Shown here: in pieces, positions 5,018-61,101 of the stretch | How the letters are laid out: every line of letters begins with the position of its first letter | How positions within the stretch are numbered: position 1 is the first letter of the stretch | Origin: a virus | IMG/VR virus record: IMGVR_UViG_3300027710_000017 | Span: 1-64,000 of that record | DNA length: 64,000 bases | Reading direction: 5' to 3' (one strand) | Made by a program: the position numbers and the translations under genes | The notes under the pieces: model-generated | Told to the model about the DNA's origin: nothing | Database searches by the model: none | Seen by the model: only the letters and a program-made list of their open reading frames with translations

Positions 5018-5032
5018 ATCTGCCTTCCTTCG

Positions 5033-5104: not shown

Positions 5105-5105
5105 G

Positions 5106-5178: not shown

Positions 5179-5182
5179 AGTG

Positions 5183-33313: not shown

Positions 33314-33852
33314 TACGAAAGCTCCTCAGAATATATTGTATCATGTAGCTCCCGAATATTGGAGATAATTTGTACCTCAACTTGCTCTTCTGGCTTTAAG
33401 TTAATTAGATCAATCACTATATCGCCAGTATTTGGCTCTACATAAACATACTCACAGGTAGAAATAGACAGCTGTGGCTCGCCTGGGGCAGTAAAGATGT
33501 AGTATCCACTGCCGCACTCTGGAGTTTTATTAGAAAGAGAGATTGCAAAATTCTTAAAGTAGTCCCTGTCTGTTCTTGACAAAGGAATAATATTGTCTGA
33601 CCTATACTGATACGACAAGCCAGAAAGATTTTTGATAGGCTGATACGTCACATTTTGACCATTTATAATATCATTTCTAACAATGTTAATTATTTCCTGG
33701 CCACCGATATCTTCAAATATCAGATCAACCATGACGTCTTCTGTTAGCGTGCTATCAGAGAAGTTTAACAACTCTGGCGTTGCAATTTTTACAGAGCTAG
33801 ATGTGCTTGAGTTATAAACTTTTTTATCTACTGATAATGGCTTAGATTCCAT
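33313..33852 (-). CDS. Minor tail protein
   Basis: Translationally coupled within the tail module. Confidence 0.55.
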   Translation of the reverse strand: MESKPLSVDKKVYNSSTSSSVKIATPELLNFSDSTLTEDVMVDLIFEDIGGQEIINIVRNDIINGQNVTYQPIKNLSGLSYQYRSDNIIPLSRTDRDYFKNFAISLSNKTPECGSGYYIFTAPGEPQLSISTCEYVYVEPNTGDIVIDLINLKPEEQVEVQIISNIRELHDTIYSEELS

Positions 33853-36800
33853 TATGCTACCTCACTTAAAAATATAGACATCTCTGGACCCTCTGTAGTT
33901 CCAGAATATTCTATTTGATAAACTACAAACCTGTCAGCCTCTAAAGCTACTTGATCCACATTATCACTGTCCTTATAGTTAATCTTTACGATATCACCGA
34001 GCTGCAATATTGGCATTCCAAACACGGTAAGGCCTACGGATTTTCTTGGCTTCATGATTTTAGAAATCATCCAGGACATTAGATTTTCTGCATCGTCATG
34101 GGACTGAATGTATGGTGCGTCTAGAGTAAAGTCTTTTTTACCATGAGTTAGTCGGCTAACCTTAATGTCTTGATATTCCTGCTTAGCTTTTGCTGTATAG
34201 CTTACCAGCTGCTGTGAATCAAACTGTGTGCTAGACAAATCACTATTTTTATCGAAGTACTCATCTACCGTTAGCTCGTGTGTCGACTGTTGGGTAAATG
34301 TTACACCCTGAATTCTTAAATAGTTGTTGCTTGTTTCGTCTAGGCTTAAAGCCGTGTCTGTTGCATTAAATATTAAGAACTCTGCACCATAAGCAGTTGC
34401 CATAAATCCAGAAGTTGTGTAGCCCTGCATCTTATTAAAGGTTGGAGAAAGCTTAGCGTACAAAGCTGGATAAGCCTTATCATATCTTATATTAAAGTAT
34501 GCGGCTTCACGCATAATTGTGCCAAACTCTTCAAAATAGATATTATATCTTGGTGGCTCTGAAGAACTGATCCCAGAAAGATATGTTGCCTTTATTGCGC
34601 CAGTAAGTCCATACTTTCTAAATGACTCATTCATTCCAGCTTCATCTTGTAAAAAGACATCGCTTATTGGGGTGTCTAAAGCATAAGACGTGTTTTGAGA
34701 ATAGTTGTTTGATATTGCATAAACATTTTCAAACATTGCCCTTGCACCACCACGCACAAAAAGACACATATTTTTGTGTATTGGTAGCGGATCTTCGTCT
34801 ACAACTGTAGCAATTAGCTTATTATTAATGTACAGGAAGAATTTTCTAGATGCTCCAATGTCCTGGTATTCAACTGCAAGATCATATACCGTTGGCTTAG
34901 CTTCATTTGCCATCCTGTACTGCCCAGTAAAGTTTCCGTCATCTACTAGGATTTGAGCCAAACCACCATAAAGCTTTACTGGTATTGCTTTTGTTGTTGG
35001 CCCAGTAGCTGGCTTTGCGACCTTATAAAATAATACGTTATGAATTTCATCTGCATTGTCATATGAGTTTATGTTGTCTTCAGTCAAAGCAGCGATCTCA
35101 AAGAAATATCCATTATTTGTTTCAGGATTTACCAGAATGCCGAGTCCGCCAGACGCCCCTGAAATTATAGAAGGCTGGCTTGGGTTACTTGCAGAGCCAA
35201 GGAAGTATGAAGATGACCCAATTGGAGTCTGAATACTATTAACATTATTTTCAACCTTTCCAATAATTCTCATCCTAGACCCAAAATGCTTGTACTTATC
35301 ATCTAAAGGCTTATACACATATGAAATAAAGTCAGTTGGTACGTCAGAGGTGGTGAATGCTGGTCCAGTAAATACAAAAGCAGATGACTGCATTGTTCCT
35401 GGCGCAATCGAGTCCTCCGAAATATTCTCCAACTCTGGACGATATGTCAAAAGATTTTTCAGAATTCCAGTTCTAGAAGAGTTTTGAGCTAGGGAATTGT
35501 TTATTCCTGCTGCTCCAGAAGTAACAGACTGCGTTGATGGCTTTCCAAATAGCTGAGTTCCGTCCATGACACATCCACGAACATTTTGATTATCTGACCA
35601 ATAAGAAGGCAAGCCTGCTGAGTGAACAACAGCTTTAGTGCCAAACTGCTCCCTACCATGCTTTGCAACTGCACCTTCTGCAAGCCTGGTTTCGTTATCT
35701 GTAATGACATAATTTGGCTCTGCGTATATTCTTACTCTACCAGTTGGATACATTTTTCCATTAAATGGAAGCTTTGCAAAATATTTTTGGTAATCTCTTA
35801 CGCTAGAAATCCACACTCTGCCAATACCACCAGATACAGATGTGTCTGCAGTTATTTCTCCATTAATATTTTCCTGCAATACAGTTCTTTCTACTCCAGG
35901 AATTTCAAACTCTACAGCATCATATTTTATAATTTCGCCATTTGCATAAAAGTATCCGTTATACCTTGTAATCCAATAGACACTTTCTCCAAGATCCATT
36001 GTATTATTTTGGATAGCTCCATTAACAATAACTGGTAGCTGGTCAGTAAGAGTGGTGCTTAGCGGGATTGCCCCAAGCACGAAGTTTGACTGATTATTTA
36101 CAACATCATTTACAGACTTTGTATTTTCAGAGCCAGCGACTTCCCAAAGCAGTGCTGGCTTATAGATCCAAACCTTGTCCTTGTCTATCATGCTTGCCTG
36201 CCTGATTGTCCCGTAAGACCTCTGGATATACCTGGTGCTGTAGTTAATCTTACCGCCGTTGAATACCTCATCTTTTTGACTTGCTATTTCAATGATGTTT
36301 GCCAACTTGGTACTTGTTGTTTTATTACTTATTTGTCCGTCTACAGAAAAATCTTTTGACCCATAAAGAGTTAAGTCTAGCTCTCTTTCGGATTCTGAAG
36401 GTAGCATGTACTCTTTTGACATTACGACAAGATTGTTATACTCATCAAAGAACATTGCACTTTGTGTTGACACAGCTATGTCATTTAATACTTCTGCTAA
36501 AGATTTATCTGGGGCAACAAAAAAGCTTGGAATAATTGGCTCTGAAAGATCACTCACTCTTTTAAATACGTAATTTGAAAAACCAATAGAGTCTAGTATC
36601 ATTGATACGGCATAGCTTAGTGATGCATTTTGAATGAATGTCTGAGGGGCAAGCTTTGATTCAAAGTAAAAGAATAGATCCCTAAGCTCTAGCGTCACAG
36701 ATCTATCTGCTGATGTTAGGTCTGGAATTTCCTCTGAGTACATAGTTTTAATTGGAATATAATAATCGATACCGCTAACATCCAGGATAACCTCATAGAG

Positions 36801-38213
36801 CTTAAACTGAATTCCCTTATTCAGATAATTTCTAACAATGCTTTTTTGATTATAAGAGCTAAAGGCTAGATCATAGTCAAATAGCGACAGTGAGCCAACC
36901 CCAGCTAAAAGTTGTCCAACTGGCATTCCACTATTTCCTAAGTCTGATGCGGATTTAGTAATCTTAAATGACTCAACCTTATCGGAAAGGTCAACGGCAA
37001 GCCTAGGAGATAGCTCAATTAGATCTAGGGTGGAATCTACCTTGTTCATTGTATCTACGACTATGCGTATTCCAGAAATCTCGTCGAACTCTCTATACTT
37101 GATAAGTCCGTCTACTGGATCTACATAGGATGCTGGATCAGTTAGGTTTGTTGCAAAATTTGTAAGCTTGTCTACCTGAGACTCTTCTAGGTACCAGCCA
37201 TATTCTGGAACAAAAACCTCATAGTCTTCAGTAGACTCTATCCAAATATGATACGTACCAATGTCTGTATCTGTTTCTTTAATTAGATAAGCATAACCAT
37301 TTGTGGACGTCTCTGGCAAAAAGCTTTCTGTGTAATACTCGTCTGCTTTTACAAAGATATCTCGATAGCCTTCTGGCACCATAAGGCCATAGGACAACTC
37401 AACATATCCGTCAGACTTGATAATTGCAGATCCGTCTTGCCTTGTTGAGCTAAAGTCAAAAGAAGCAGCGTCTACCCAGTCATTATCTTTTAGGGTTTGA
37501 ACCTTCCACTTTACTGGCGTAGTTTTATTTTGATCTCCAAAAAACGGATCGTTAAAAGTTCCGCCATTGCCAGAAAATGTTCCAAAGTCTATATCTCCAA
37601 CATTAGTTTGCATCTTTACAACTAGCCTATTTGCTGGCAGGATATTTTTATACACTACAAATGGAGAGGCATCGTCTATGAAGTATTGTCCATTAATTAA
37701 TTTATTTGCAATACCTCGCTCAATTCCATTCTCAGTTCTGTAGGATGACCAGTACTTAAACTGATCTTCTTTATGTGACATGTAATATCTAGGTCTTCTA
37801 ATCATGTCAATGTTAGTGAAATGAGTATACTTTCCAGGAAAATATCTAAGCTTGTTAATTCCAGAGCGTGGCCTGAATTTTCCAAAACAATCTTCTAAGG
37901 AATAAAGTAGTCTTTCTTTTTCTTTTTTAGGAGTAAAAAGAATTGGAGTTTCGTCATCATCCTCAAGTCCGCCGTCTACGACAACGTCGGCATCAGTAGC
38001 GTTTGTATAAAAATTACCAGAGTCATTTTCGTCAAATGAGGTTACTGCTAGGCCATAATCGCTAGATGGGCCCTCTGATGGACGATATCTGTAGTTACCA
38101 ATCTTTAGAATGTTTTCTGCAATATTCATATTCCATTCTGCAATGACTGCAGAATTGCTTTTAATTGTAGAGGATGTTTCTAAATGATTTAATAATTCAT
38201 CATCTTTAAACAT
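33852..38213 (-). CDS. Large tail-tip/hub protein
   Basis: 1453 aa; hub-like C-terminus APYIQS...GMPILQLGDIVKI. Confidence 0.7.
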   Translation of the reverse strand: MFKDDELLNHLETSSTIKSNSAVIAEWNMNIAENILKIGNYRYRPSEGPSSDYGLAVTSFDENDSGNFYTNATDADVVVDGGLEDDDETPILFTPKKEKERLLYSLEDCFGKFRPRSGINKLRYFPGKYTHFTNIDMIRRPRYYMSHKEDQFKYWSSYRTENGIERGIANKLINGQYFIDDASPFVVYKNILPANRLVVKMQTNVGDIDFGTFSGNGGTFNDPFFGDQNKTTPVKWKVQTLKDNDWVDAASFDFSSTRQDGSAIIKSDGYVELSYGLMVPEGYRDIFVKADEYYTESFLPETSTNGYAYLIKETDTDIGTYHIWIESTEDYEVFVPEYGWYLEESQVDKLTNFATNLTDPASYVDPVDGLIKYREFDEISGIRIVVDTMNKVDSTLDLIELSPRLAVDLSDKVESFKITKSASDLGNSGMPVGQLLAGVGSLSLFDYDLAFSSYNQKSIVRNYLNKGIQFKLYEVILDVSGIDYYIPIKTMYSEEIPDLTSADRSVTLELRDLFFYFESKLAPQTFIQNASLSYAVSMILDSIGFSNYVFKRVSDLSEPIIPSFFVAPDKSLAEVLNDIAVSTQSAMFFDEYNNLVVMSKEYMLPSESERELDLTLYGSKDFSVDGQISNKTTSTKLANIIEIASQKDEVFNGGKINYSTRYIQRSYGTIRQASMIDKDKVWIYKPALLWEVAGSENTKSVNDVVNNQSNFVLGAIPLSTTLTDQLPVIVNGAIQNNTMDLGESVYWITRYNGYFYANGEIIKYDAVEFEIPGVERTVLQENINGEITADTSVSGGIGRVWISSVRDYQKYFAKLPFNGKMYPTGRVRIYAEPNYVITDNETRLAEGAVAKHGREQFGTKAVVHSAGLPSYWSDNQNVRGCVMDGTQLFGKPSTQSVTSGAAGINNSLAQNSSRTGILKNLLTYRPELENISEDSIAPGTMQSSAFVFTGPAFTTSDVPTDFISYVYKPLDDKYKHFGSRMRIIGKVENNVNSIQTPIGSSSYFLGSASNPSQPSIISGASGGLGILVNPETNNGYFFEIAALTEDNINSYDNADEIHNVLFYKVAKPATGPTTKAIPVKLYGGLAQILVDDGNFTGQYRMANEAKPTVYDLAVEYQDIGASRKFFLYINNKLIATVVDEDPLPIHKNMCLFVRGGARAMFENVYAISNNYSQNTSYALDTPISDVFLQDEAGMNESFRKYGLTGAIKATYLSGISSSEPPRYNIYFEEFGTIMREAAYFNIRYDKAYPALYAKLSPTFNKMQGYTTSGFMATAYGAEFLIFNATDTALSLDETSNNYLRIQGVTFTQQSTHELTVDEYFDKNSDLSSTQFDSQQLVSYTAKAKQEYQDIKVSRLTHGKKDFTLDAPYIQSHDDAENLMSWMISKIMKPRKSVGLTVFGMPILQLGDIVKINYKDSDNVDQVALEADRFVVYQIEYSGTTEGPEMSIFLSEVA

Positions 38214-38912
38214 TTACACCTCTTCCAGCGTTACCGATATGTTCCAAAAATCATGGGTACTGGATCCACGCTTAACAACAGTATAGGAAAAATCTGAAAT
38301 AAACATTTCAATCAGTTGATTATAGTGTGGCAAATGCGAATATGTTTCACTATTGTTTTCAAAAACAGAATACTTGTCGTATGCAAGGTACACCCAAAAA
38401 GAACCTTTGTAGTTTTCGTACCATCTCAAAATTTCTACTCCACCTGCGCCACCATCTGTTGTATACTGCTCAGAAGAGTTTGTTGTATTAGGCAAGATTA
38501 TGAATGATCCATCGTCTCCTGGCTCTCTAGATCCTACAGTATTTAAATCTGACTTACCAGTTGCCTGGTCAAAATTTGGGCTTAGCTTATGAGACCTAGA
38601 TGGTAGCATATTCCAAGAAGTAGAAACTGTTAGTTTATCTGCAATATGATAAGACCTCATCCTACCATTTACCATTCTTTTTCTATTCTCAATTCTTGTT
38701 GGGGTAAACTCTATTGAGGACCTGTTGTCGTCAGATAGAATTAGAAATTGTCCTAGGCTACCTGTTTGAGCATTAAAGCTTGTCTCAGAGTTAACCTCAA
38801 GACCGCTGGGGATGTATAGTCCATCTACAAGCGTGCCAGGGTTTTCAGACCATAGCATAGCTTGTGGTCTTTGATATTTTTTACGGCCTAGCATGTAGTC
38901 TTCTGTAGCCAT
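38214..38912 (-). CDS. Distal tail protein-like
   Basis: Directly after the TMP; RMVNGRMRSYHIADK...WNISVTLEEV. Confidence 0.6.
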   Translation of the reverse strand: MATEDYMLGRKKYQRPQAMLWSENPGTLVDGLYIPSGLEVNSETSFNAQTGSLGQFLILSDDNRSSIEFTPTRIENRKRMVNGRMRSYHIADKLTVSTSWNMLPSRSHKLSPNFDQATGKSDLNTVGSREPGDDGSFIILPNTTNSSEQYTTDGGAGGVEILRWYENYKGSFWVYLAYDKYSVFENNSETYSHLPHYNQLIEMFISDFSYTVVKRGSSTHDFWNISVTLEEV

Positions 38913-41900
38913 TAAAACTTATTCCCCCTAATCCTTTGAGAGTCAATCTGCTTAATTTGTCCAATAACGGATCTAGCAATCTGATCTGCATTGGCATCTG
39001 TTTTAACATTAACGTTTACCTCATAATTATACACTGAATCGCTGGAATGTGTTCCATTATTTATTGCTTTCATCTTGTCTACACCATACTTTTCAACGGC
39101 ATATTTGCGAACGACAAATTCTCCTGGAGTAAGCATTGCAGGGACGGTATCCGTACCCTTAGGCTCAAATATTCCACCATCACCCATGTATGGAACAGGG
39201 CCTCCCTGAGACATCATTAGCTTAGCTCCCTTGGCATTGTACGGAGTGTTGCCTGTTGGAGAGGTAAACTTATCTCCAGTAAGTGGATCTCTAAAGACTA
39301 TTCCAGTATTTACCCTAGCATCTGCCACAGGAACAAAATACCCACGAGTAGGATCGTAAGTTACCGACTCTCTGGTGGATGTGGCAGGAGCTGGTGGAAG
39401 AGCTGCTGACAGAGTCTTTGACCCAAGACTATTCCAGTGAGACACAATGTCTTTAACAATATCTAGGGCTGCTTGCATGGCATCCTTGAAGGGTTGGCTA
39501 GAAGTAACTGCTAAGTCAATGCCGTTTTTTATCTGTGTCCATTCAAGCTTTGTTTTGTTAAGGACTGTTAGGGCTTCGGTAGCTACAGCAAGATTTGCCT
39601 CAGCAATTCGAACAGCTTCTGCTGCTGGCTCTAACCTTGTTTCTTCAATCTTAAAGATTTCTTTTTCAACTCTTAGAATTTCTGCTTCTAGCTCTGTTCT
39701 AGATTTACCGCCAGAAGACCTAAGGTTGCTTAGGGCTCCTTGCCTTGACGCCTCTAGCATATCTCTCTGAGTTCCAATAGCACCCTGAGCAGATTGAGCC
39801 CTCATCTCCTGGGCTGCTCTTGCTGCTGCTGCAATGTCTCCCTGGCTTAGTGCGTCGGCAAGAGAGATCTGTGTTTTCTGCTGTGCGGAAATTGCATCGT
39901 TTGCCTTTTCAATTTTATCTAGCGCATCTAGTCTCTTGTCGTACTTTTCATTAACAGAATCTTCTTGCCATTCAATTTCTTGGATACCAGCCTGAAGGTT
40001 ATCCATTTGGAATTGTAGTGCAGCTATTTCTCTTTGAGCCTGGGCCAATATTTCTCTAGCACCCTTTTGAGCCACACCAGCAATACTAAAGTCTTTTAGC
40101 TTAATTTCCATATCAATCTGAAGCTTTTCTTCTTGCGCAGAGAAGGCTTCCATTGCTTTGTTAAAGCCATCATCAAAAACAGATTGCTTAAAGTCAATGT
40201 CGTTAATTACTTGCTGCATACGTGTAGCAAATTCTGCTGGCAGTTCTGTTATCATACCGCTCAAGAACTTTTGGTATGTTTCTGAAAGTGTTGAGTCGAA
40301 CTCAATTGCTGCTTGCTGTAACTCTGTAAACTTAGTATTGTTTGTGCTAAAAGCATTCTTCATTGCGCTTTCGCCTGAAGCCTGCTGAATATCTTCAATC
40401 AGCTGGAGTCTTGATGCTACTAGGCCTACCTTAGCTGCTGAATCATTAGCATCCTTTCCTAACTGCTTAAGCTCTTTAGAGCTTATGTCTTTTGAGGCAA
40501 TTGCAGCTGCAACGGCTGGGTCCTCTATAGCCTTCAGAGCTTCTGCCACAGACATACCTGCAGCAACTAACTTGTTGAATGCCGTTGACTGGTTCAGGGC
40601 GTCTCTGGAAGCTTCTTTAAGTCCAACCTGGAACTCTCCCAAGGCAATTTCATTAAATACCTTGGCCATGTTTTTGCCAGCCTCTTTAAGTGTAACGATT
40701 CCATTCTTAACTCTTATAAACTTATCTTGAATATCCTTATCAAGTCCTAGTAAGTAATCAATGAAGGTCCTGTTAACTCCTCGGCCAATTAGCTGCTGCT
40801 CAATACCCTTAAACTGCTTCATGTTTTTATTTCCGCCGAGCCACTTATTAAGCTCTGTAATTCCACCAGTTGCTTTTACTGCTGCTTCACGTATTTCTCT
40901 AAGCCTTTGCAACGGCTCTTCGTAAGGGTCTTGCTTCGCTCCGCCTGTAGGTGGAGTTTTAGCATTTGGATCAAAGTCTCCGAGGGTCATATCTGCATTT
41001 CCAGTTTCAGCTTTTTGGAAAGACATAGCTTCTGCATACTCTTTTAAGATTATAGGGTCTGGAGAGTTTGCCCACGCAGCACCTTCTGATTTTAACCAGG
41101 CCTGAACTTTTGGATCGTGAACTGTTTTGACTGAGCTTATTATTGTTGCATACGTTCTCAAGAAGATTTCTTTGCCCTCTTCTGTGAGTTTTTCAAACTC
41201 TGCTATGTCCTGACCAACTAAGTTTAAGTTTTCTGCACCGACTATATCTGCTACAACTTTAACAGTAATAGGGCCCTTTATTTTATCTATTTCATCATAC
41301 ATTCCCTGAAGTTTTTTAGCTGCAGTTGGATTTTTAATAAAGAAGTCTACTGCAAAAGCAGCATCTTTTCCAGATGCCTGAGTTACCTTTGTATAAAAGT
41401 CAATTATATCTGCAGCTTCTTTTGAAGTTTTTGCCCCGTCAACTTGAGCAACAAATGAGGAAACGACGCTATCTATTGGCTTTCCAGTTACTGGATCTGT
41501 AAAAAATTGAGTCATTGCAGATACTTGATTTGCAAAGGCTCCGCCATATTTTGTAATAATATTTACAGTTCTTGTTTGTGTTGATTCTGGCATTGAAAGA
41601 ATATTGACAAGCTGTACTGGGTCAACCTCTTTAGATGCAAGCTGCATTGTAACTAGATACTTTTTCTCTGGTGTCAGATTAGACGATTCCAAATTCTTTA
41701 ATCCAAGAGCTGCAACTGCTGCCATTGGAGTATCTTTATATGCAGCTGTGACAGAAGTTTTTGCACCAGTCATTAAGGCATCTTGTAATTCTGGACTTGC
41801 TGTTTTGTAGCTCTCCATAATTCCAGTAGTTAGTTTTTGATTTTGAGTTAAAATATCTACTCTTGCATCTTCTAATTCTTTGAGGAGCTTGGCCTTTTTT

Positions 41901-44900
41901 ACTAAGTCTCCAGCAGATTCAGCATTAGCTATCCTTTGCTCGTATTCTAACTCTAAAGAGTCGGACATCTGCTGTTGCTGTTCTAATGCCATCTGTTGCA
42001 TTGCTACAGCAGCGCCAGAAGCTAGCCCAAGATCTTCCTTCCTGCCTGTTGACCCTGCAACATATCCAGTAATTCCGCCGCTGACTCCACCAATAATAGT
42101 TCCAGCTACAGCACCAATACCAGTTCCGATTCCTGGAAGGATTGCAGTTCCAATAGCTGCACCAATACCAGCACCGATACCAGCGCCAGCCGCAGCACCC
42201 CCAACCATGGTGCCAATCGCATTCCAGTCAGTTCCTTCAATTGATTTTTTAGCAAGGTCCATCGTTGTCTTAACTTGCTCCTGTTGATCTTCTAGTATTT
42301 CAAGCCTTACTTTAAGTGGGTCCTTAGCTAGGTTTTCTCCATTTGGTCCAAGGATATTAATTAATTGTGCGTTTACCTGAATTCCAAGAGCGTAGTCTCC
42401 CATTTCTTTTGAAATATTTGCGACAACAGATCTTGCCTCAGCTGCAGACATAGCTCCAGAGGCTACTGCTGTAGCCATTTGATTAACTAATTGTGATTGG
42501 GTGGCTACACGGCCGTTAGTTGAAAGTGACTTTGTAACATCACCTATCGCTGTCTTTCCCTCTTCAGTTTGAACAAAAGCTTCTCCAAAAGTTGTCTTTC
42601 CTGTTGCAGTCTGGAATTGGCTCAAAGAGCCTGCCCTTCTTTTATCCATAATTTCACTTGCAGTTGCGTTACCAGCAAACTTGGCAAACTTCTGAAGGGC
42701 TGCGTCGCCTGCGCCTAAGCTACCACTTAAATCAAGAGCACTCTTTTGTGCTGCTTTAAATGCTTCATCTAGCTTATAGGCGGCATACATAGGCAAAGCT
42801 ACAGCTGCAACTAATGCCATCAAGGCTGCGCTAACTGGCCCCTGAATAAACATGGCTAAGGTTGATAGACCAAGCAAAACTGGAGCTATATCTTGAGCAA
42901 CCTTTCCAGCTTCTCCTGGTAGCATCATAGCCGCACCAGTAGCCATGCTTGCACCCATACCAATCATGCCGATACGCTGGGCGCCTTGTGCAAACCTTTG
43001 CTTTGGATCCATTCCAGATCTGGAAGCCGCTAGCCTGCTTTGGGCCTGTTGTCTGCTTATGCGGTTTCCGTTAGCATCTTTATATCCACCCCTTGGACCA
43101 CGTGTCAGCCCTGCGGCTTCGAGTCTTTTTGCTTCTTTTCTATCTAATGCAGCTTGGTTGATAACCTTTCCATTTTCATCAACGACCTGATTTCCAGCCA
43201 TGGTTCCAATAGCTGACCCTATTGGCTTAGCAATAGCATTTCCTACTGCCCTTAGTCCTGATCCTAGCCCAGTGGCGACTGCAGACCCCATCTGCTTTCC
43301 GCTAGCAGCAAGAACACGAGGAGCAAACGCTTCTTTGCGGAATATCCTACCTGATTTTTTGGCTTGCTTATTTTCTTCTGAGTCTGCTTGGGCGGAAGAG
43401 CCAAAAGGATCTCCGTCAAATTTGGGAGGAGCAAAAGTATTTGTAGAAGGAGTTCTAAAAGGATCATTAAGTGGATCATAGCCATCAAAGTACCCTGGAA
43501 TATTATCAGAAATCATAGAGCTAATTAGTGGGGAATACTTCTTTGCCATCTTTGTAGGTATGACCGCTTCCCCTGGAGAAAGCATAGCTGGAACTACGTC
43601 GCCCTTGCCCTTTGGTCCTGGTACTGAAACTACACCAGTCGCAAACTTGTTTCTGCCAAACCTTCTTGCAAGCATCCCCATAACCATTTCAGAAAAAGTT
43701 TTAGCTGGTGCAACTGCTGGCATTTTTTGAGATCCAGCAATGCTATTTCCAGCACTTAATATTTTGCTTAGTTGACTTATAGTTTTTTGAGTTGGAGCTA
43801 TAGGCTTTTCGCTAGTGTTGGACTTTTGAGATCGCCGAGGCTTGGCAACTTCTTTTTCTGCTTTTGAAGATAGTTGACCATAAGACTTTTCTTTGAGCAA
43901 TTTTTCCACAGACTCAAATCTTTCTTTTTGAGCCTTAAGTACATCTGGTCGACCAACCTGATAAATAGAGTTAATTAGTCTGTTTGAAAATGCAAATTTT
44001 TCTTTTTTAGAAAGAGAGTTGTACCTTTCTCTTACACGACTTCTAAGCTCTTCTGGTAACTTTACAGATCCTTGAGACAAGAAGTTTCTTTCAAATTTAT
44101 CTACAAAGCTAGCTCCAAAGATTCTTTGAGAATTTCCGCCTCTTCTGGCACCTATTAGCCTATCCCTTACATTTCCAAAAATTGGGCTGTACTCTTTACC
44201 CCTACTGCTAGCCCCTTGACCAGGCTTTGCTACCGATGTTCTTAGCCTACCAAGCAAATTAAGATCTTGAATCATTGTTTTTGCTGCTGGACTTTTTATT
44301 TTTCTAACTGCTTTTGTTTCGGCCCTTTCGTACATATCTTGAAGGTCCGCCTCTGTTACTGTACGATTAAATGAAGACTTGAGCTCAGACCTCATTGCTT
44401 TGTCAAGATTAAGGGCATAGGACTTTATCTGCCTGTCAGATATGCCGTGTCCCTCAGGAAGCCTAGACAATATTCCAGAACCAAAAAGACCTCTGGGCAT
44501 ACGGCGGAGTGCAGCCAAGTAACCCTTTCCAGTCATTGCTTCTGAACGTATATTAGATGTTGCTCTATTTGCATCGGCCTGCAGTGGTTCTACCATGTTT
44601 GAGAAAAGCTTAAACTCTGTTCCACCTAGCTTGCTGAGTTCAGCTTTAAAGTCTGCCCTCATTTGGTTTGGGTCTAGCCCCATTCTTGCCAAAGCTCCAG
44701 ATCTGACACCTTGCTCAATTTCTCTATCGAAGATTTCAGTGACTTGTTTTCTGCTCAACCTGCCTTCTGGAGAAGCCGACATGTGGGCGCTATCAATAGA
44801 GAAGCTTCTGTCAAATTCAAATGATTTAGGAGCTGACGATGTTCCATTTTCATATCCAGGAACTCCCATGCCCCTAAACAATCTTGCAACAAATCCAGAG

Positions 44901-47833
44901 CCAGATACACGTACGCCTGCCAGGCCTGCAGCTCGCAACTCAGCCTTTAGCTGTTTTGCAATAGCTGGATCACGTGCAATAATCTTGTCTATTTCTTTAA
45001 ACCCAAACCCGCCTGGAGTGTGTGTTTCTATGTATGGAGATCTTGGGTTTATCGAATACTGATTCTTAGTTCCTGGAACCAAATTACTACCAAATGGCAT
45101 TCCAAGTCTTTCAAATGACCCTAGCTGTTTTGAAGATGCTCCACGCATTGGTGCTGGACGCATTGAACTTTGGATTCTTCCCAAACTGAGGCCAGAATTC
45201 TTTGCTCTAACATATTCCATCAATGTGTCGTTAGGATATGCAGACGATCTTCTAGCTACAGCAGATTTTGTGATAAGGTCTATATTGCCATACCTGCTTA
45301 AAGATTTTTCGCTAGGATTAGTAGTAAGAGAGTTAAAGTTCTTTCCCTTAATTCCAAATACTCTATTAATTAAAGATTGCAAAATTGAGGTTTTTGCATA
45401 GCCGTAAGTTGGTCTTTTTGAAGAAGAGGTTGATTTTGGATCTAGCCCAAACAGATCTCTTTCCATGTCCGATCTAGCCTGCTTTTGTCTTGGATTCAAT
45501 ATTCCATATTTAGTTAAATAGTCTGCTCCAGACTGGGTATCAAATGCGCTCTGATACTTTCCACCTTTTCCATTAGCTCGTAAAGCCCGTACAAAGTCTT
45601 CAGACCTCATTCTTGTTGCAACGTTAGATCGGCTCAGCATAGATGCAAATGGATTAAACCCAAATCGGAACCCAGGAATATTATCCGAAATCATGGATGA
45701 TACTAGTCCACGATATTTCTTTGCCTGTTTTGCTGGAATAACAGCCTCTCCTGGTGAGAGCATAGCTGGAACAACATCTCCAGCTCCCTTTGGACCAGGA
45801 ACAGATAAAACTCCAGATGCATACTTTTTTGGAGTTTTGCCCCTTGGCATAACTGGAGCACCAGTTTCAGGATTTCTTCCAAGAAGTCTTGACTGCTGAA
45901 CTACAGCTCTTGCATAAGAAGAAGCCAGTCTGTCAACAGCTCCAGCCTCCACTGCAAAAGTCTGGATTAATCTTGAGTGTGACTGGTTTAGTGAGGAGGC
46001 TACAGCGTTAGCTTCTAGCTGTTGCTGTGTCATGTAGTCTGTTGAAATTCCCAGGCTTCTAGAGGATTGCCCAGTTTTTGAGAATACCCCCATAACGTTT
46101 GCAAAAAGCTTAATTAAGTTTGCGGCTCCGTTAGCAATAAGACCAAACATCATTAAGAAGACTGGTCCAATACCACCAATTAGTGTGGTAGCTACAACAG
46201 CAAACTGCTTTGCGCCGTCACTTAAGTTATTAAAGTTCTTTAAGACTTCTGCACCAAACTGTACTAGTGGGGTAATCGCCTTTAAGAATTCTGCTCCGAC
46301 AGGAGCTAGTGCTGCCTGAAACTTTTCAAGTTGATTTTGAAATTTAAATAGTGGAGACTCTTCAACTCTCTTTAACTCTCGCTCAGAGATAATTGCAAGC
46401 TCCTCAGACGTAGCATTTGCTAGCTTTAGAACTTTTTGTGCCTGAGAGCCATCCTTGATAACGTTCTGGAACAAAGTAGATAGACGTGAAAACTGGAATT
46501 TTCCAAACAGCTGCTCAATAGCCCTTGCACGATTTAAAGGATCTAGAGTGTCTAGGGCTTGCGCAAAGCCAATTACAATGCCTTTGACATCTCCCTTATT
46601 TGCCTGAACAATACCCTTGACATTTATACCAAAGCCATTGAGCATTTCTGCTGCTTTTCCTGTAGGGTTGATCAAAGCTGCAAGACCAGACTTTAGGGCG
46701 TTAGCACCTTCGGAGGCATTAATTCCACCTTCCTTCATGGCTGTCAGGAAGAACGCTAGGTCTTCTACATCTCCACCAAGCTGCTTTACGACAGGACCTG
46801 CTTTTGGAATTGCAATAGTCAGGTCGTTGATGGCAGTTACTGTTTCATTTTCTACAGAGTTTAGGAAGTCAATCTTTCCAGCTAGCTGTTCGGCTGCGAC
46901 CCCAAATGCATTTGTAACTGATATTGTGGCTCTTAAAGCTTCTTGCTGATCTACTTCACCTAATACTGCAAGCCTTGTGGCTTCTGTAACCTGAGCTCTA
47001 AGAGCAGCACCTGTCAAACCCATCTGAGCTGCATCTGCGGCTAGCTCCAAAGTTTTATTTACTTCAATACCATATTTTGTAAATCCATCTGCAAGCCTCT
47101 TCATATCCTCTAAGGCTTTATCAGTTGCCTCTTCGGTATCAAAGGCTTCTCCATAAACACGCTTAAAACGTATGGCCTGCTTTTCAACTTTTTCAAATTC
47201 TTTAACGGCCATAGATCCAAAGATAGCCAAAGGTATTGTGAAACCAACCATAAGCTGGCGACCAGCCCACTGAGTATTTTTACCAAAGTTTAGAAGGTTG
47301 GTAGATCCTTGCTTTACAAGCTGATTAAATAACTGTTGCTTCTGAGCAGCGATGGCAGTTTTGGTTGCCAGGTTTTCCATGTCTAAAGCTAAAGGCCGAA
47401 CAGCAATGGCCTTCATTGCACCACTGCCGTCACGGCCTAGCTTAACATACTGCGTCTGTAGGGTCTTTACTCTTTCACGAGCGACCTTTTCAATTGTGTC
47501 AAATTCACTTCTAAATAATCTACCGAAAGTTTTTGTGGATGCTCCAGCATACCTAAAGTACTCTCCCATGGAGAGCTTGTTTCTTTCAAGTGCAGTAGTA
47601 AAAGACTCTGCAGTTGTAGATATATTTTTTACACTAGCGGCAAACTGTCCAGTTGCATTTATATTATTTATTAAATTGCGCTGGATGTTTTGTGCGGATG
47701 CTGCCTGCTGTGCCCCGCTTTTGAGAAGCTGAGCGTTTAACTGAGATATCTGCCTCTGCAGGTTTTTTATTTCTGCTATACCCACAGATGTGTCAACATT
47801 AATTATAATGTCTGATCTGATATCATCAGCCAT
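38912..47833 (-). CDS. Tape measure protein with internal repeat-delimited cargo domains
   Basis: 2973 aa; TP901-type core (GINASEGANALKSGL), TM/glycine-zipper segments, coiled coils, three VPAMLxPGE modules. Confidence 0.92.
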   Translation of the reverse strand: MADDIRSDIIINVDTSVGIAEIKNLQRQISQLNAQLLKSGAQQAASAQNIQRNLINNINATGQFAASVKNISTTAESFTTALERNKLSMGEYFRYAGASTKTFGRLFRSEFDTIEKVARERVKTLQTQYVKLGRDGSGAMKAIAVRPLALDMENLATKTAIAAQKQQLFNQLVKQGSTNLLNFGKNTQWAGRQLMVGFTIPLAIFGSMAVKEFEKVEKQAIRFKRVYGEAFDTEEATDKALEDMKRLADGFTKYGIEVNKTLELAADAAQMGLTGAALRAQVTEATRLAVLGEVDQQEALRATISVTNAFGVAAEQLAGKIDFLNSVENETVTAINDLTIAIPKAGPVVKQLGGDVEDLAFFLTAMKEGGINASEGANALKSGLAALINPTGKAAEMLNGFGINVKGIVQANKGDVKGIVIGFAQALDTLDPLNRARAIEQLFGKFQFSRLSTLFQNVIKDGSQAQKVLKLANATSEELAIISERELKRVEESPLFKFQNQLEKFQAALAPVGAEFLKAITPLVQFGAEVLKNFNNLSDGAKQFAVVATTLIGGIGPVFLMMFGLIANGAANLIKLFANVMGVFSKTGQSSRSLGISTDYMTQQQLEANAVASSLNQSHSRLIQTFAVEAGAVDRLASSYARAVVQQSRLLGRNPETGAPVMPRGKTPKKYASGVLSVPGPKGAGDVVPAMLSPGEAVIPAKQAKKYRGLVSSMISDNIPGFRFGFNPFASMLSRSNVATRMRSEDFVRALRANGKGGKYQSAFDTQSGADYLTKYGILNPRQKQARSDMERDLFGLDPKSTSSSKRPTYGYAKTSILQSLINRVFGIKGKNFNSLTTNPSEKSLSRYGNIDLITKSAVARRSSAYPNDTLMEYVRAKNSGLSLGRIQSSMRPAPMRGASSKQLGSFERLGMPFGSNLVPGTKNQYSINPRSPYIETHTPGGFGFKEIDKIIARDPAIAKQLKAELRAAGLAGVRVSGSGFVARLFRGMGVPGYENGTSSAPKSFEFDRSFSIDSAHMSASPEGRLSRKQVTEIFDREIEQGVRSGALARMGLDPNQMRADFKAELSKLGGTEFKLFSNMVEPLQADANRATSNIRSEAMTGKGYLAALRRMPRGLFGSGILSRLPEGHGISDRQIKSYALNLDKAMRSELKSSFNRTVTEADLQDMYERAETKAVRKIKSPAAKTMIQDLNLLGRLRTSVAKPGQGASSRGKEYSPIFGNVRDRLIGARRGGNSQRIFGASFVDKFERNFLSQGSVKLPEELRSRVRERYNSLSKKEKFAFSNRLINSIYQVGRPDVLKAQKERFESVEKLLKEKSYGQLSSKAEKEVAKPRRSQKSNTSEKPIAPTQKTISQLSKILSAGNSIAGSQKMPAVAPAKTFSEMVMGMLARRFGRNKFATGVVSVPGPKGKGDVVPAMLSPGEAVIPTKMAKKYSPLISSMISDNIPGYFDGYDPLNDPFRTPSTNTFAPPKFDGDPFGSSAQADSEENKQAKKSGRIFRKEAFAPRVLAASGKQMGSAVATGLGSGLRAVGNAIAKPIGSAIGTMAGNQVVDENGKVINQAALDRKEAKRLEAAGLTRGPRGGYKDANGNRISRQQAQSRLAASRSGMDPKQRFAQGAQRIGMIGMGASMATGAAMMLPGEAGKVAQDIAPVLLGLSTLAMFIQGPVSAALMALVAAVALPMYAAYKLDEAFKAAQKSALDLSGSLGAGDAALQKFAKFAGNATASEIMDKRRAGSLSQFQTATGKTTFGEAFVQTEEGKTAIGDVTKSLSTNGRVATQSQLVNQMATAVASGAMSAAEARSVVANISKEMGDYALGIQVNAQLINILGPNGENLAKDPLKVRLEILEDQQEQVKTTMDLAKKSIEGTDWNAIGTMVGGAAAGAGIGAGIGAAIGTAILPGIGTGIGAVAGTIIGGVSGGITGYVAGSTGRKEDLGLASGAAVAMQQMALEQQQQMSDSLELEYEQRIANAESAGDLVKKAKLLKELEDARVDILTQNQKLTTGIMESYKTASPELQDALMTGAKTSVTAAYKDTPMAAVAALGLKNLESSNLTPEKKYLVTMQLASKEVDPVQLVNILSMPESTQTRTVNIITKYGGAFANQVSAMTQFFTDPVTGKPIDSVVSSFVAQVDGAKTSKEAADIIDFYTKVTQASGKDAAFAVDFFIKNPTAAKKLQGMYDEIDKIKGPITVKVVADIVGAENLNLVGQDIAEFEKLTEEGKEIFLRTYATIISSVKTVHDPKVQAWLKSEGAAWANSPDPIILKEYAEAMSFQKAETGNADMTLGDFDPNAKTPPTGGAKQDPYEEPLQRLREIREAAVKATGGITELNKWLGGNKNMKQFKGIEQQLIGRGVNRTFIDYLLGLDKDIQDKFIRVKNGIVTLKEAGKNMAKVFNEIALGEFQVGLKEASRDALNQSTAFNKLVAAGMSVAEALKAIEDPAVAAAIASKDISSKELKQLGKDANDSAAKVGLVASRLQLIEDIQQASGESAMKNAFSTNNTKFTELQQAAIEFDSTLSETYQKFLSGMITELPAEFATRMQQVINDIDFKQSVFDDGFNKAMEAFSAQEEKLQIDMEIKLKDFSIAGVAQKGAREILAQAQREIAALQFQMDNLQAGIQEIEWQEDSVNEKYDKRLDALDKIEKANDAISAQQKTQISLADALSQGDIAAAARAAQEMRAQSAQGAIGTQRDMLEASRQGALSNLRSSGGKSRTELEAEILRVEKEIFKIEETRLEPAAEAVRIAEANLAVATEALTVLNKTKLEWTQIKNGIDLAVTSSQPFKDAMQAALDIVKDIVSHWNSLGSKTLSAALPPAPATSTRESVTYDPTRGYFVPVADARVNTGIVFRDPLTGDKFTSPTGNTPYNAKGAKLMMSQGGPVPYMGDGGIFEPKGTDTVPAMLTPGEFVVRKYAVEKYGVDKMKAINNGTHSSDSVYNYEVNVNVKTDANADQIARSVIGQIKQIDSQRIRGNKF
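43481..43651 (-). repeat. 57-aa internal repeat, copy 2, in the TMP
   Basis: NKFATGVVSVPGPKGKGDVVPAMLSPGEAVIPTKMAKKYSPLISSMISDNIPGYFDG. Confidence 0.9.
45659..45829 (-). repeat. 57-aa internal repeat, copy 1, in the TMP
   Basis: KKYASGVLSVPGPKGAGDVVPAMLSPGEAVIPAKQAKKYRGLVSSMISDNIPGFRFG; 44/57 identical to copy 2. Confidence 0.9.
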
Positions 47834-47864: not shown

Positions 47865-48176
47865 TTAGTTGTTTATTCTACCGAAGATACTTGAGTTCCC
47901 CGATGCTTCTTCAACAATCTTGTACACTGTTGGAAGGTCTAGTAGATCTTCCAAAACTTTTACATCCCCTGCTAGCTCTGGCTTAAACTGCTGCATAGCA
48001 ATCTGAACACACTCGATAAGGAGATTCATAGACTTCTCGTTGTCTTCTGAAACTTCCTGAATTTCCTGAAACTTCTTCAAGAATGGTCTCAAAAGAGAAA
48101 TCTTTAGAGGCCTGATCTGGATCTCCTGACCATCTAGCAATGTTACCTTTTTTTCTTCGTTTACTGTAGTTGCCAT
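47865..48176 (-). CDS. Tail assembly chaperone (G-like, short form)
   Basis: Between tail tube and TMP; paralogous to the N-terminal half of 48233..48925; SD AGGAAGGA. Confidence 0.7.
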   Translation of the reverse strand: MATTVNEEKKVTLLDGQEIQIRPLKISLLRPFLKKFQEIQEVSEDNEKSMNLLIECVQIAMQQFKPELAGDVKVLEDLLDLPTVYKIVEEASGNSSIFGRINN

Positions 48177-48232
48177 AGTAATAGTTCCTTCCTAGGTTTT
48201 TTGTGGCTTTGATAATTATATCACAAAGAGGG

Positions 48233-48925
48233 CTATTTTTTAGTTAAATCTTCGTAACCCAAGCCCATGCCTATTCCAAATCCTGCCTTCTGTGCATTGT
48301 ACCCCTGAAGTGCAGTAATGTCATTTGAGTCTTTAGCCTTGCCTTTACTAAATACTCTAGCTTTCATTTCTTCCCAAGCATTGCTGTTTTGTCTTCCAGT
48401 TTGCTTATCTAAATCTACTCCCTGAATTGCCGCAAAAAACTTTTTCTCTTGATAGTCTAGCTCTCTTTTAGTCTCTAGCATTGACGTTAGCTCTGGCATA
48501 GATATATTGGATTCCATCTCTTCATAATTTTTCCAGATGCCCGTCAAGAAGGCCTCGGCTTCTAGCTTTACAAGATCTAATCCAGACCAGTCTGCACCGC
48601 TTGAAACAGCCTGTTCCTTTACTTCTTTGTCGCTTTCCTTTTTTATTTTAATACCTGCGGCTACGTCTATAATTTTATATATTGAGTTTAGGTCAAGGCT
48701 TTCTTCTAGGTCAGACATGGTCTTTATTGGTGGGTAATATTGTTGCATGCATATCCTGGCACACTCAGAAAGAAAGAATATGGCGTCATCATCAGTTTTT
48801 GCTGTTTTGACAAACTCAAAAGCATCCATAAACTGACGCAAATATTTTATCTTAAGTGGGGATATTTCAATGGTATTACCATCGAATAGCTCAATAACAG
48901 ATGTCTCGTATACTCTAGTTGCCAT
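48233..48925 (-). CDS. Tail assembly chaperone (G-T-like, in-frame long form)
   Basis: G-like N-terminal half plus extension WKNYEEMESNISMPEL; leaderless TGGTATAAT-6 nt-ATG. Confidence 0.65.
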   Translation of the reverse strand: MATRVYETSVIELFDGNTIEISPLKIKYLRQFMDAFEFVKTAKTDDDAIFFLSECARICMQQYYPPIKTMSDLEESLDLNSIYKIIDVAAGIKIKKESDKEVKEQAVSSGADWSGLDLVKLEAEAFLTGIWKNYEEMESNISMPELTSMLETKRELDYQEKKFFAAIQGVDLDKQTGRQNSNAWEEMKARVFSKGKAKDSNDITALQGYNAQKAGFGIGMGLGYEDLTKK

Positions 48926-60400: not shown

Positions 60401-61101
60401 AAATAATATCCATCTAATTCTTCTAGGCCATATGCTTTAGCTGGAATACCTTGTATATTGTCGGCACCAAAAATCTGCACAGGAAGCTCTACTGGAACCA
60501 CACCCAAAGAGCTGGCGGTAAACTCTTCAGACCATTGCCCCAGGGAAACTCCATTTACCAAAAATGACAGATCTTCTAATGTCCCTCCGTCGAAGAAGTT
60601 TGCCCTGATTACTATTCGAATTGATGAATTGTCTGAAGGCAATGAAAATGTTTCTGAAAGAAATATCCAGCTATCGGCAATTTGAGATGTAAAAAGCTTT
60701 AAATTTTGAACTAAGGATCCACTGACAGAATCAAAGTACTCATACCCAATCTCAAATCCAGAAATATATGGGGTTTTACTGTATAGCATAGCAGAAATAG
60801 CAAACGTTGAAAGATCTTCGTTTAAATCTGAAATATTTACCATGTCTGGGCTAACGGCAGTAACACTTAGGCTTTCAGATAGGCTTTCTGCTGCAACTTC
60901 TGTTGTAAAACTTTCTGGAAATGGCTCATCTAGTATGCTGCCAACTGTTGTGGCCACGCCATTATCAATATTCCAAAGAGTCAAGTCCCTATTTTGCTCA
61001 GAAATAAGTGATACGTAATCAGCTTTATCGTCAAGGGGCCAGAAAGCTACTGGATGCTCTGCAAAGATTTTTTCAGCATATAAACTAGAAGGAGTAGACA
61101 T
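57403..61101 (-). CDS. Large virion structural protein with LamG/concanavalin-like domains
   Basis: EHPVAFWPLDD, YTFEFW, VSLVINGEQV, LDGVAIY. Confidence 0.65.
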   Translation of the reverse strand: MSTPSSLYAEKIFAEHPVAFWPLDDKADYVSLISEQNRDLTLWNIDNGVATTVGSILDEPFPESFTTEVAAESLSESLSVTAVSPDMVNISDLNEDLSTFAISAMLYSKTPYISGFEIGYEYFDSVSGSLVQNLKLFTSQIADSWIFLSETFSLPSDNSSIRIVIRANFFDGGTLEDLSFLVNGVSLGQWSEEFTASSLGVVPVELPVQIFGADNIQGIPAKAYGLEELDGYYLIRKNALSAKNSGIPLVYGATNSTIVQQSGGIVPSLIVPGQGFLNKSGQYKDYTFEFWARINSDTTEEKRIFGNIRGLDGLYVKGASLSLKVGKYIVRHYVGQWYRPMLIQIRYSASSVSLVINGEQVGEISINVEELDFPESTTFLSEEVMLDNDWVGFWSYEDVSPIDLDGVAIYGYKVPNQMAKRRFVYGQGVEFPENINNAYSGSSVFIDYPFSKYSKNYNYPSLGKWRQGAYDNLLIDGNSISFPSYSAPVAKFNNKTESEWLLDLEEAQNESDYFIKIRPNSSWSSSSGHLFFENANLANEEIRGIYVVCKEGSLPSSEQTLLVIEDRSSETTFEIKLSASGISYVINERGESNLIAFVSRPSMAGIGEKGAIALDIRKFSDYYGGKAAQFFGKLSSPSVYVGSRKDFSQPFGGKIYSIGFCSAKNLSKISSVFGQDGLPLTDDFVDGALPHLSVADAGLYNNSIFEFLYDGGTLKGYSESVISSHTPSYGIAPGENLSGFGLLVAADSSWQDYVPLSFFAKNVLDPRGDEKLDLDFIQFNINYPSPSLFVQDETAGSWTYQELQDQYSNPVQRGYDSLDNQLVTGYENYEDLKNKSVSSYKYDTSNSVVKTYITFQLLENGANTSADNFPNTELAPKDGVISPGDDWLSTRYEVVDNMIIYPPQSIAFEDIAIVTHIEMSSNSISDNPISIKALEYASMSLSETAPTSIGTRFGNDIYPYRKDGFYFTYKEKNPFSIYKGSTPYLYLTRNSGITMRGSYDPLVNRGISVPINEAKSDNYKVIAMQLAMRFDQDFFPYAPTKIFEIQSKNSYIKFYMVAVDSAGKRAKVYAISDEGKLENGLSFFLNGKLVKDPILTIKEWAMIGIRFSNTQEFGNYAGALRLTAPLTYNNISYYKSTNLQEVQTVIERPWFKVKLAETIELEWDYWKFPFLWENVLVIATTSYYGVNPSDIYKIYTGTNKIIIDDEVETRFGDYSYTVAEDISWRSQVYQAV

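Follow-up and report, generated by a model that had tools for sequence, protein, structure and literature searches.

The window analysed here is a stretch of 64,000 nucleotides, positions 1 to 64,000 of the IMG/VR virus record IMGVR_UViG_3300027710_000017, and the element under study is its tape measure protein (TMP) gene, located at 38912..47833 on the minus strand. TMPs are usually seen as passive rulers or channel formers; a few are known that carry wall hydrolases, and one that carries an RNA polymerase. Sequence comparisons indicate that the TMP described here, encoded by a single open reading frame (ORF) and named P0001, is a conserved ruler scaffold with cargo slots, each of which starts right after a short module ending in PG[FY]xxG and is occupied in relatives by unrelated, permuted or extra domains. 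The best explanation for the whole is a slot-bearing TMP with hook-like modules, whose cargo would be delivered to the host cytoplasm; the probability of this reading is estimated at about 0.55. Since the gene is read on the minus strand, the codon of residue i starts at position 47833-3(i-1), and the features of the protein are the following, from the N- to the C-terminus (aa, amino acids; pI, isoelectric point; HMM, hidden Markov model).

38912..47833, minus strand: TMP gene, single ORF of 2973 aa
45854..47833, minus strand: N-terminal TMP core, aa 1-660, kept in nearly all relatives
45659..45829, minus strand: module 1, aa 669-725, opening sequence KKYASG, closing sequence IPGFRFG, HMM E-value 7e-32
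44864..45658, minus strand: domain A, aa 726-990, ADP-ribosyltransferase-like predicted fold, pI 10.6
44843..44863, minus strand: orphan junction VPGYENG, aa 991-997, a PGYxxG without a module directly behind it
43844..44842, minus strand: domain B, aa 998-1330, alpha/beta, pI 10.1, confidently predicted fold
43652..43843, minus strand: basic linker, aa 1331-1394, mostly predicted disordered, pI 11.9, ending in ...ARRFGR before NKFATG
43481..43651, minus strand: module 2, aa 1395-1451, opening sequence NKFATG, closing sequence IPGYFDG, HMM E-value 9e-31
42743..43480, minus strand: basic low-complexity linker, aa 1452-1620, then a hydrophobic cluster at about aa 1628-1697, from hydropathy and pI
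42059..42211, minus strand: glycine-zipper-like hydrophobic stretch, about aa 1875-1925, hydropathy peak at aa 1881-1908
39053..39175, minus strand: module 3, diverged C-terminal copy, aa 2887-2927, HMM E-value 5.6e-9
38915..39052, minus strand: C-terminal 46 residues, conserved in relatives

The N-terminal region is that of a TP901-type TMP: PhageMin_Tail (Pfam PF10145) matches aa 253-444 with 88.8 bits against a cut-off of 33.2, and PHROG TMP families cover aa 11-649 with E-values down to 1e-92. Beyond PhageMin_Tail, no other Pfam domain, peptidases included, was found in this TMP. Three hydrophobic clusters are evident from hydropathy, at about aa 545-585 (within the N-terminal core, peaking at aa 551-569), 1628-1697 (peaking at aa 1654-1680, behind the linker that follows module 2, whose pI is 10.5) and 1875-1925; the part of the linker and of the second cluster named T2 is conserved among relatives. 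The region between aa 601 and 1620 is uniformly basic, with pI values of 10-12, and the C-terminal half of the protein has a pI of about 5. The scaffold is composed of the TP901-type core, the hydrophobic segments, a long helical C-terminal half and a plug, which is also preceded by a copy of the module. The plug, formed by the last 46 residues, is probably seated in the tail tip, a role assigned because the TMP C-termini have been resolved in the phages Douge, JBD30 and T5 (PMC13033339, PMC11445458, PMC10038345).

A first-pass annotation of the window, made without database searches, had described in this gene two 57-residue modules alike in protein but changed at synonymous sites, about 670 aa of basic sequence between them, a third, diverged module near the C-terminus and a short signature repeated at the boundaries, and all of these proved correct. 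Modules 1 and 2 share 44 of 57 residues (77%) but only 119 of 171 bases, and among the 42 identical residues that have degenerate codons 26 are encoded by a different codon. Since protein identity was kept while synonymous sites were scrambled, the internal modules appear to be old copies held alike by purifying selection at the protein level; recombination between them at the DNA level is an unlikely source of their likeness, the longest identical run of bases being only 14. The sequence between them spans 669 aa and is basic throughout, with pI values of 10.6 for domain A, 10.1 for domain B and 10.5-11.9 for the linkers. The third copy was recovered, at the site originally given, by an HMM built from the modules of relatives, and it aligns with the C-terminal copies found in them. 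The closing signature PG[FY]xxG occurs exactly three times in the TMP (aa 720, 992 and 1446), with 0.05 occurrences expected from composition, and both internal modules open with K[YF]AxG. No Pfam family corresponds to the module. As a monomer, the module is modelled with low confidence in both AlphaFold2 (AF2) predictions, that of domain A and that of domain B, the predicted local distance difference test score (pLDDT) of module 1 being very low and mostly below 40, as would be expected of a piece that folds only on a partner.

Comparison with relatives revealed an extensive polymorphism at these modules. Scanning IMG/VR with conserved N-terminal TMP peptides identified at least 582 relatives, 80 of which were retrieved, and a search limited to aa 669-1451 found 964 long TMPs that share part of the cassette. 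When 119 proteins were mapped by BLAST onto this TMP, the first 1000 residues, comprising core, module 1 and domain A, were usually colinear, while the downstream part differed. Annotation of 232 proteins with region-specific HMMs led to a general plan, in which the core and module 1 are followed by a variable segment, optionally by a further module and variable segment, then by the hydrophobic cluster, the helical half, another variable segment and finally the C-terminal module with the plug. Module 1 is present in all relatives. The arrangements behind it include domain A between module 1 and a further module, a B-like domain (B') placed before A in the same interval, three internal modules, or, in place of these, some 400 aa of unrelated sequence. 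Clustering of the 333 segments found behind internal modules gave 62 clusters; the 115 segments preceding the C-terminal module form 64 clusters and represent a second hypervariable slot, which is occupied by domain A in three proteins (L022, P0134 and P0143), where it lies directly before the C-terminal module.

The sharpness of the boundary was evaluated in 38 unbiased relatives aligned on the end of module 1. Mean pairwise identity over the last 40 residues of the module is 0.32-0.67, mostly at least 0.4, and from the first residue past PG[FY]xxG it is 0.07-0.12; on sequence grounds, this abrupt drop is a demarcation of the kind known from polymorphic toxin families. The alignment of related TMPs that the first-pass annotation had proposed as a check thus gave the predicted picture, with variable domains at conserved modules that are swapped, permuted or absent from one protein to another, and the opposite outcome, an insert that is invariant helical tape in relatives, was not seen, the insert being predicted globular and varying among them. 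A different result was obtained for the bracketing by two modules. In an unbiased IMG/VR sample of 61 distinct full-length TMPs, a single internal module followed by a variable stretch is found in 43, two internal modules in 17 and three in one; the view that the cassette is always enclosed between two copies is ruled out, and the arrangement in the present phage cannot be taken as the rule. In the same sample domain A occurs in three TMPs and domain B in one.

The joint between domains A and B illustrates how such arrangements may be generated. In two relatives (P0056 and P0067), domain A ends in ...RLFxxMG-PGYxxG and runs straight into the module core ...SVPGPKGxGD..., while in this phage PGYENG is followed by domain B, then by ...ARRFGR-NKFATG and only then by the module core. 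Since those relatives pass from A directly into the core, domain B must have entered at the N-terminal border of the module usually found behind A, together with a second short [FY]xxG lead, and module 2 is better read as that same module, displaced by the insertion. A third relative (P0018) is 82% identical through domain A and carries a different insert from exactly the same residue; in a fourth (P0033), where B' precedes A, a degenerate joint, ...RLFGR-KYAFG, lies between them. Because insert starts and rearranged domain orders fall at the signature in relatives, the [FY]xxG pointed out in the first-pass annotation is the real cassette joint. The proposal that VPGYENG splits the insert into two is in agreement with these data, since the parts on either side are predicted to fold independently and occur separately in relatives.

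Domain A was modelled by AF2 together with module 1 from 14 sequences, obtaining a mixed alpha/beta fold with a mean pLDDT of 56 and values of 50-84 in the core. A Foldseek search of the PDB gave nothing significant, the top rows being SopF (7DN9), with an E-value of 0.08, and seven entries of DarT with E-values no better than this. An independent VIA structural search over 48,161 chains placed Mycobacterium tuberculosis DarT first (Z 6.6 over 166 aligned residues, from this weak model), followed by SopF (Z 6.5, 171 residues) and three further DarTs (Z 6.0, 5.4 and 4.8); the top five align over 153-171 residues, unrelated rows over only about 50, and CteC, CopC and OspC3 are found further down the ranking. 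Conservation was evaluated on 119 copies at about 30-77% identity. Residues R741, Y760, R787, E791, R807-P-x-Y810-G811, Y848-G849, D869, E936 and G941-G942-F943 are conserved in 97-100% of them, with R807 and E936 at 99-100%; R862 and S863 are kept in 90-91% (S863 in 90%), and position 864 is Ser or Thr in 96%. In the low-confidence model R807 lies before a strand, S863/S864 begin a strand that leads into a helix, and E936 is part of a strand, which is the order expected of an R-S-E ADP-ribosyltransferase. An ADP-ribosyltransferase-like fold for domain A is therefore fairly probable on the basis of the model, and if that fold is right the domain is likely catalytic.

Domain B was modelled from 33 sequences with a mean pLDDT of 77.5, mostly at or above 90 over model residues 10-300 and with dips to about 62-80 near model residues 91-100, 201-220 and 291-300. 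Fold searches with Foldseek against the PDB, VIA in its wide mode and BFVD gave no match, only short helical overlaps; the sigma-factor rows that appeared in them were discarded as noise, with template modelling (TM) scores of about 0.1. Over 36 copies H1017, N1089, G1115, G1118, Y1139 and E1161 are at least 97% conserved, and a Gly-rich loop, P1113-x-G-x-x-G-x-G1120, is conserved as well; this loop, together with H1017, N1089, Y1139 and E1161, suggests a ligand site. Although the fold as a whole is unmatched, the loop with N1089, Y1139 and E1161 resembles a site for binding nucleotides or phosphate. As regards the beta-beta-alpha metal fold and catalytic His of His-Me finger nucleases, the model places a small hairpin before a helix, H1017 and N1089 are conserved, and His-Me nucleases are absent among the fold matches. 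A metagenome scan for domain B found two loci only. The linker behind it (aa 1331-1394) has pLDDT values below 50 over most of its length, with one predicted helix near the end.

The first-pass annotation had called the insert enzyme-like, and the two domains divide on this point: the predicted fold and the invariant polar residues agree with it for domain A, while domain B shows no recognisable enzyme fold. By sequence both are confined almost entirely to TMPs. Searching domains A and B against 1.84 billion representative proteins gave 51 matches, all of them giant TMPs or TMP pieces except for one 527-aa match (P0148), and no usable match for either domain was found in the ESM Atlas. Pfam returned nothing significant for the domains or the modules (best Catalase-rel at E 0.17 and DUF3626 at E 0.28), and a sequence-profile search of the PDB with domain A had no match at E 10.

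The contents of the slots in other members of the group were analysed by running Pfam on 64 representative variable segments of relatives. LysM was found twice and a HAD IIIB acid phosphatase once, with 58 bits against a cut-off of 27; the phosphatase lies in a 968-aa stretch between two modules, at 6825-9728 of locus L032 (the TMP of IMGVR_UViG_3300032240_000720), and this segment also matches DUF2608 and a PHROG polynucleotide-kinase-like family. Other single matches (cEGF, DUF5525 and GPS2_interact) have no evident relevance. In PHROGs, the variable segments gave endolysin-type, polynucleotide-kinase-type and transglycosylase matches, the remainder being orphans. Wall-binding domains, LysM or CW_7, are found shortly before the C-terminal module (P0013, aa 2755-2799; P0046, aa 2530-2569) and lie in the acidic C-terminal part of these proteins, not in the basic slot behind module 1. 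In one relative the hydrophobic region contains DUF6861 (P0057, aa 1600-1700).

The module is also found in known phages. When all PDB chain sequences were searched with a profile built from 30 modules (alignment A7), matches were obtained in Douge gp16 (PDB 8ZDO, chain S) twice, at 963-1013 and 1410-1474 with an E-value of 9e-22, and in JBD30 gp46 at 1018-1055 with an E-value of 5e-5. The module is also matched in TM4 gp17 (L104) at 701-749, with an independent E-value (i-E) of 8e-14, about 30-50 residues upstream of Mt3, a hydrolase motif of 114 residues to which W853 belongs (PMC1796659), and a clear copy is present at 1457-1518 of Gordonia phage GMA1 (i-E 8e-18). An M23 peptidase of Streptomyces phage Belfort is flanked by two matches that are module-like but marginal (i-E 0.0012 and 0.15). 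When the cassette alone was compared with cultured phages, the sole match was a 38-aa piece of the module in GMA1, and the 57-aa module sequence alone had no match among them at E 1e-3. The profile matches identify the module as a general TMP element, one that is not discussed in the publications on Douge and TM4.

In the Douge TMP only residues 1658-1699 were modelled, so its modules are unseen (PMC13033339). In JBD30, residues 1022-1066 were predicted by AlphaFold2 as a "hook" of two helices and a hairpin, and the authors propose, by analogy with T5, that the protein is cut at 1066 and that the hook then anchors the TMP in the baseplate (PMC11445458). The module overlaps this stretch, predicted as a docking hook beside a predicted cleavage site. 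In T5 both events have been observed, since pb2 is cut after R1127, as determined by mass spectrometry, and the C-terminus created by the cut (1085-1127) was visible in a docked state between subunits of the hub. The piece cut off from the C-terminal end, which bears the metallopeptidase motif with its muralytic activity, remains in the tail, and its expulsion at infection has been proposed (PMC10038345). The stretch of T5 pb2 (L105) right after the cut, aa 1128-1160 (GG..PG..Y..GE.G.EVV.P), has a loose by-eye likeness to the module core, without an HMM match, and this is possibly a coincidence.

On these grounds a mechanism can be outlined for the preferred reading. The module would correspond to the TMP hook as predicted for JBD30, disordered alone and binding to the tail-tip hub, and it might lie beside a proteolytic cut as in T5 pb2, so that each unit would end in a hook. 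Forming a section of the ruler, the cargo would be carried in the lumen of the tail in an unfolded or extended state, be expelled ahead of the DNA and refold in the host. That it counts as ruler length is indicated by TM4, where removal of Mt3 shortens the tail by about 20 nm (PMC1796659). Because the basic region, at about aa 600-1620 between hydrophobic segments, stands against an acidic C-terminal half, in which the wall-binding domains of relatives are found, the positive-inside rule would probably place the cassette on the cytoplasmic side. That TMP-borne cargo can act inside the host follows from the Thermus phage P23-45, whose TMP-fused virion RNA polymerase transcribes pre-early genes and works on the cytoplasmic side right after infection (PMC10770324). 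Domain A would then ADP-ribosylate a host or nucleic-acid target early in infection, in the manner in which T4 Alt acts from the head and the P23-45 RNA polymerase from the tail. A much wider version, in which module and PG[FY]xxG are a general siphophage "cut-and-dock" code, so that any domain behind them is stored unfolded, released in order and refolded in the host, and the ruler is a programmable, polymorphic injection device with a large set of unexplored effectors of first-minute takeover or anti-defence, here a TMP-only ADP-ribosyltransferase family and an orphan fold, must be considered rather unlikely at present.

Several points weigh against the preferred reading. Cleavage, docking and delivery rest on analogy with T5 pb2, TM4 Mt3 and the P23-45 RNA polymerase. 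The T5 pb2 anchor (1085-1127) was considered as a homologue of the module and rejected, neither module HMM matching pb2 even at E 1000, and since that anchor is not detectably homologous the docking role rests on the published JBD30 prediction rather than on a structure; the two may still be analogous in function. No protease domain was found in the TMP. The model of domain A is weak, as its mean pLDDT indicates, and a Z of about 6.5 is within reach of unrelated models; Pfam DarT (PF14487) has no match in the phage record at E 10, and DUF3626 (PF12294) reaches only 10.6 bits on domain A, against a cut-off of 27, with none in a six-frame search. At least 57 of the 64 representative segments from relatives are without a Pfam family, and for those the term "effector" is not established. 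Finally, the tail lumen cannot accommodate three folded copies of a globular 30-kDa domain next to one another, so that storage in unfolded form has to be assumed.

Among the alternatives, the one that survives best, though still improbable, is that the inserted domains, like TM4 Mt3, T5 pb2C or the M23 and transglycosylase domains of other actinophage TMPs, act in the cell envelope, in wall crossing or channel building, and that the modules merely hold the pieces in the tail tip. Indeed, most of the experimentally characterised TMP cargo is muralytic (PMC1796659, PMC10038345), with the P23-45 RNA polymerase as the exception; M23 and transglycosylase domains are found next to modules in cultured relatives, LysM and CW_7 are carried by relatives, and PHROG endolysin and transglycosylase matches occur among the variable segments. 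Conversely, domains A and B are unlike any wall hydrolase in Pfam or fold searches, the wall-binding domains sit in the acidic part of the protein rather than in the basic slot after module 1, and the fold matches ranking highest for domain A belong to NAD-using transferases whose activity is intracellular.

A slightly less probable explanation is that the basic cassette is a DNA-handling part of the ruler, binding the leading end of the genome inside the tail and escorting or protecting it on entry, as a pilot, with the DarT-like fold serving for nucleic-acid binding and not for modification of the host. The uniformly basic charge between aa 601 and 1620 (pI 10-12) would fit this function, as would the activity of DarT, the best fold match, on single-stranded DNA and the reports of TMPs touching the DNA end in the tail (PMC13033339, PMC11445458). 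However, a housekeeping binder should be conserved, while domain A is found in 3 of 61 unbiased TMPs and domain B in 1 of 61, dozens of unrelated sequences occupy the slot, and the invariant residues of Arg/Ser/Glu type point to catalysis. Very improbable is the last possibility, that the modules are relics of ancient fusions or duplications of a TMP C-terminus and the inserts neutral filler setting tail length: module 3 is an ordinary C-terminal TMP element to which the internal copies are homologous, and the removal of Mt3 shortens the TM4 tail as that of a ruler segment would (PMC1796659), but the internal modules keep 77% protein identity despite randomised synonymous sites and recur in conserved form in hundreds of phages. 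Moreover, the confident model of domain B is globular, and domain A retains 13 invariant or near-invariant, mostly polar residues over its 119 copies, none of which would be expected of filler.

Functional domains in TMPs (TM4, T5, P23-45), polymorphic effectors delivered by virions and TMP-like effectors of contractile systems are already known, and the slot-bearing TMP proposed here shares features with each of them. In T5 pb2 (Linares et al. 2023, PMC10038345) the TMP likewise carries cargo, being cut inside the tail with the distal muralytic piece kept in the tube and proposed to be expelled first; that cargo is single, fixed, C-terminal and muralytic, whereas here several internal slots with interchangeable, non-muralytic cargo are found. 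The hook of JBD30 gp46 (Valentova et al. 2024, PMC11445458) lies upstream of a C-terminal coiled-coil plug, as module 3 does here, although in that phage hook and cleavage are predicted and not observed. In the papers on JBD30, Douge and TM4 the module is not described as a boundary of swappable domains. The gp96 protein of P23-45 (Chaban et al. 2024, PMC10770324) is also a giant TMP, of 5002 aa, bearing a folded enzyme; its cargo is N-terminal, fixed and an RNA polymerase, and no repeated delimiting module or polymorphism has been reported for it. The mycobacteriophage TMP motifs 1-3 (Piuri and Hatfull 2006, PMC1796659) are small host-like domains embedded in the TMP, dispensable for viability, which add to tail length and aid infection; they are peptidoglycan hydrolases, whereas the set of domains described here is much more extensive, belongs for the most part to unknown families and comprises an ADP-ribosyltransferase-like domain.

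Variable effectors joined by a sharp junction to a conserved virion carrier are known from polyvalent proteins (Iyer et al. 2017, PMC5512222), MuF toxins (Jamet et al. 2017, PMC5576092), MuF-VIP2 and T4 Alt. ADP-ribosyltransferases are indeed delivered in virions by T4 Alt, which comes from the head, and by actinophage MuF-VIP2 fusions (PMC5512222, PMC7302621). Those systems use head proteins (MuF or portal-associated) as carriers, mostly have the variable toxin at the C-terminus, and their processing is attributed to zincin-like peptidase domains; the TMP differs in being a tail ruler with internal slots, and it showed no peptidase domain. The paper on polyvalent proteins makes no mention of tape measure proteins (PMC5512222). 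Polymorphic toxin systems have in common with this TMP a conserved carrier with a sharp junction to a hypervariable domain (here identity falls from about 0.5 to 0.1, over 62 clusters), but in the present case the slots are internal and the next gene is a conserved 232-aa tail gene rather than an immunity gene, the genome elsewhere not having been searched for immunity genes. Sle1-type effectors, known from contractile injection systems of actinobacteria (Nagakubo et al. 2026, PMC13277306), likewise have a TMP-like helical carrier with a variable domain that is loaded into a tail-like tube and ejected from it; those belong to a contractile injection system and not to a phage, their variable domain is C-terminal and no hook module has been reported. 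In the literature searched we did not find a repeated hook module as the boundary of interchangeable internal slots, polymorphism on such a scale or an ADP-ribosyltransferase-like domain inside a TMP.

These comparisons outline a large environmental phage family, with more than 580 contigs, that uses fixed joints of its ruler as slots for dozens of unrelated domains, among them a predicted ADP-ribosyltransferase-like family that, P0148 with its 527 aa aside, has no counterpart outside TMPs in 1.84 billion representatives. If delivered, the cargo would be the earliest phage protein in the host, arriving before any phage gene is expressed, and for this reason it would be a natural place to seek anti-defence and takeover functions. 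Should the proposal be true, the module would also serve in practice as a guide for locating cargo in siphophages of any kind and as an entry point for engineering proteins to be delivered by phages. Moreover, as the module is present in cultured and genetically tractable phages such as TM4 and Douge, the cleavage and docking hypothesis is directly testable.

The TMP gene, the largest of the tail genes, lies in a virion gene order of portal, capsid, an immunoglobulin (Ig)-domain protein, two chaperone-like ORFs, TMP, a 232-aa gene and a 1453-aa minor tail protein, with the Ig-domain protein in the position of the major tail protein. The two downstream genes (33852..38912, minus strand) encode products of 232 aa and 1453 aa in the positions of distal tail and tail hub/fibre proteins, and they directly follow the TMP in more than 60 related loci; the larger product matches a PHROG minor tail protein family, and neither has a Pfam match. 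The chaperone and distal tail roles of the flanking genes are read from gene position. Just upstream of the TMP, at 47865..48925, two ORFs of 103 aa and 230 aa share a match to phrog_10504, which covers the first 90-100 residues of each, and have no match in Pfam; they look like a tail-chaperone pair made of two separate paralogous genes rather than a frameshifted G/GT pair. Adjoining the portal gene, a 1232-aa ORF at 57403..61101, with zero PHROG matches, may encode a large head-associated or ejection protein.

The virus record measures 93 kb and is estimated to be 82% complete, which corresponds to a full genome of roughly 110 kb. A megablast of the TMP gene against INPHARED gave no DNA-level match, and tblastn against cultured phages matched only the N-terminal fifth (20%) of the TMP. 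As phages of Streptomyces, Gordonia and Staphylococcus head the list of these matches, a Gram-positive or actinobacterial host is likely for this uncultured siphophage. Finally, five transfer RNA genes, Thr-tgt, Glu-ttc, Asp-gtc, Gly-tcc and Asn-gtt, are clustered at 5032..5507 on the minus strand of the window.

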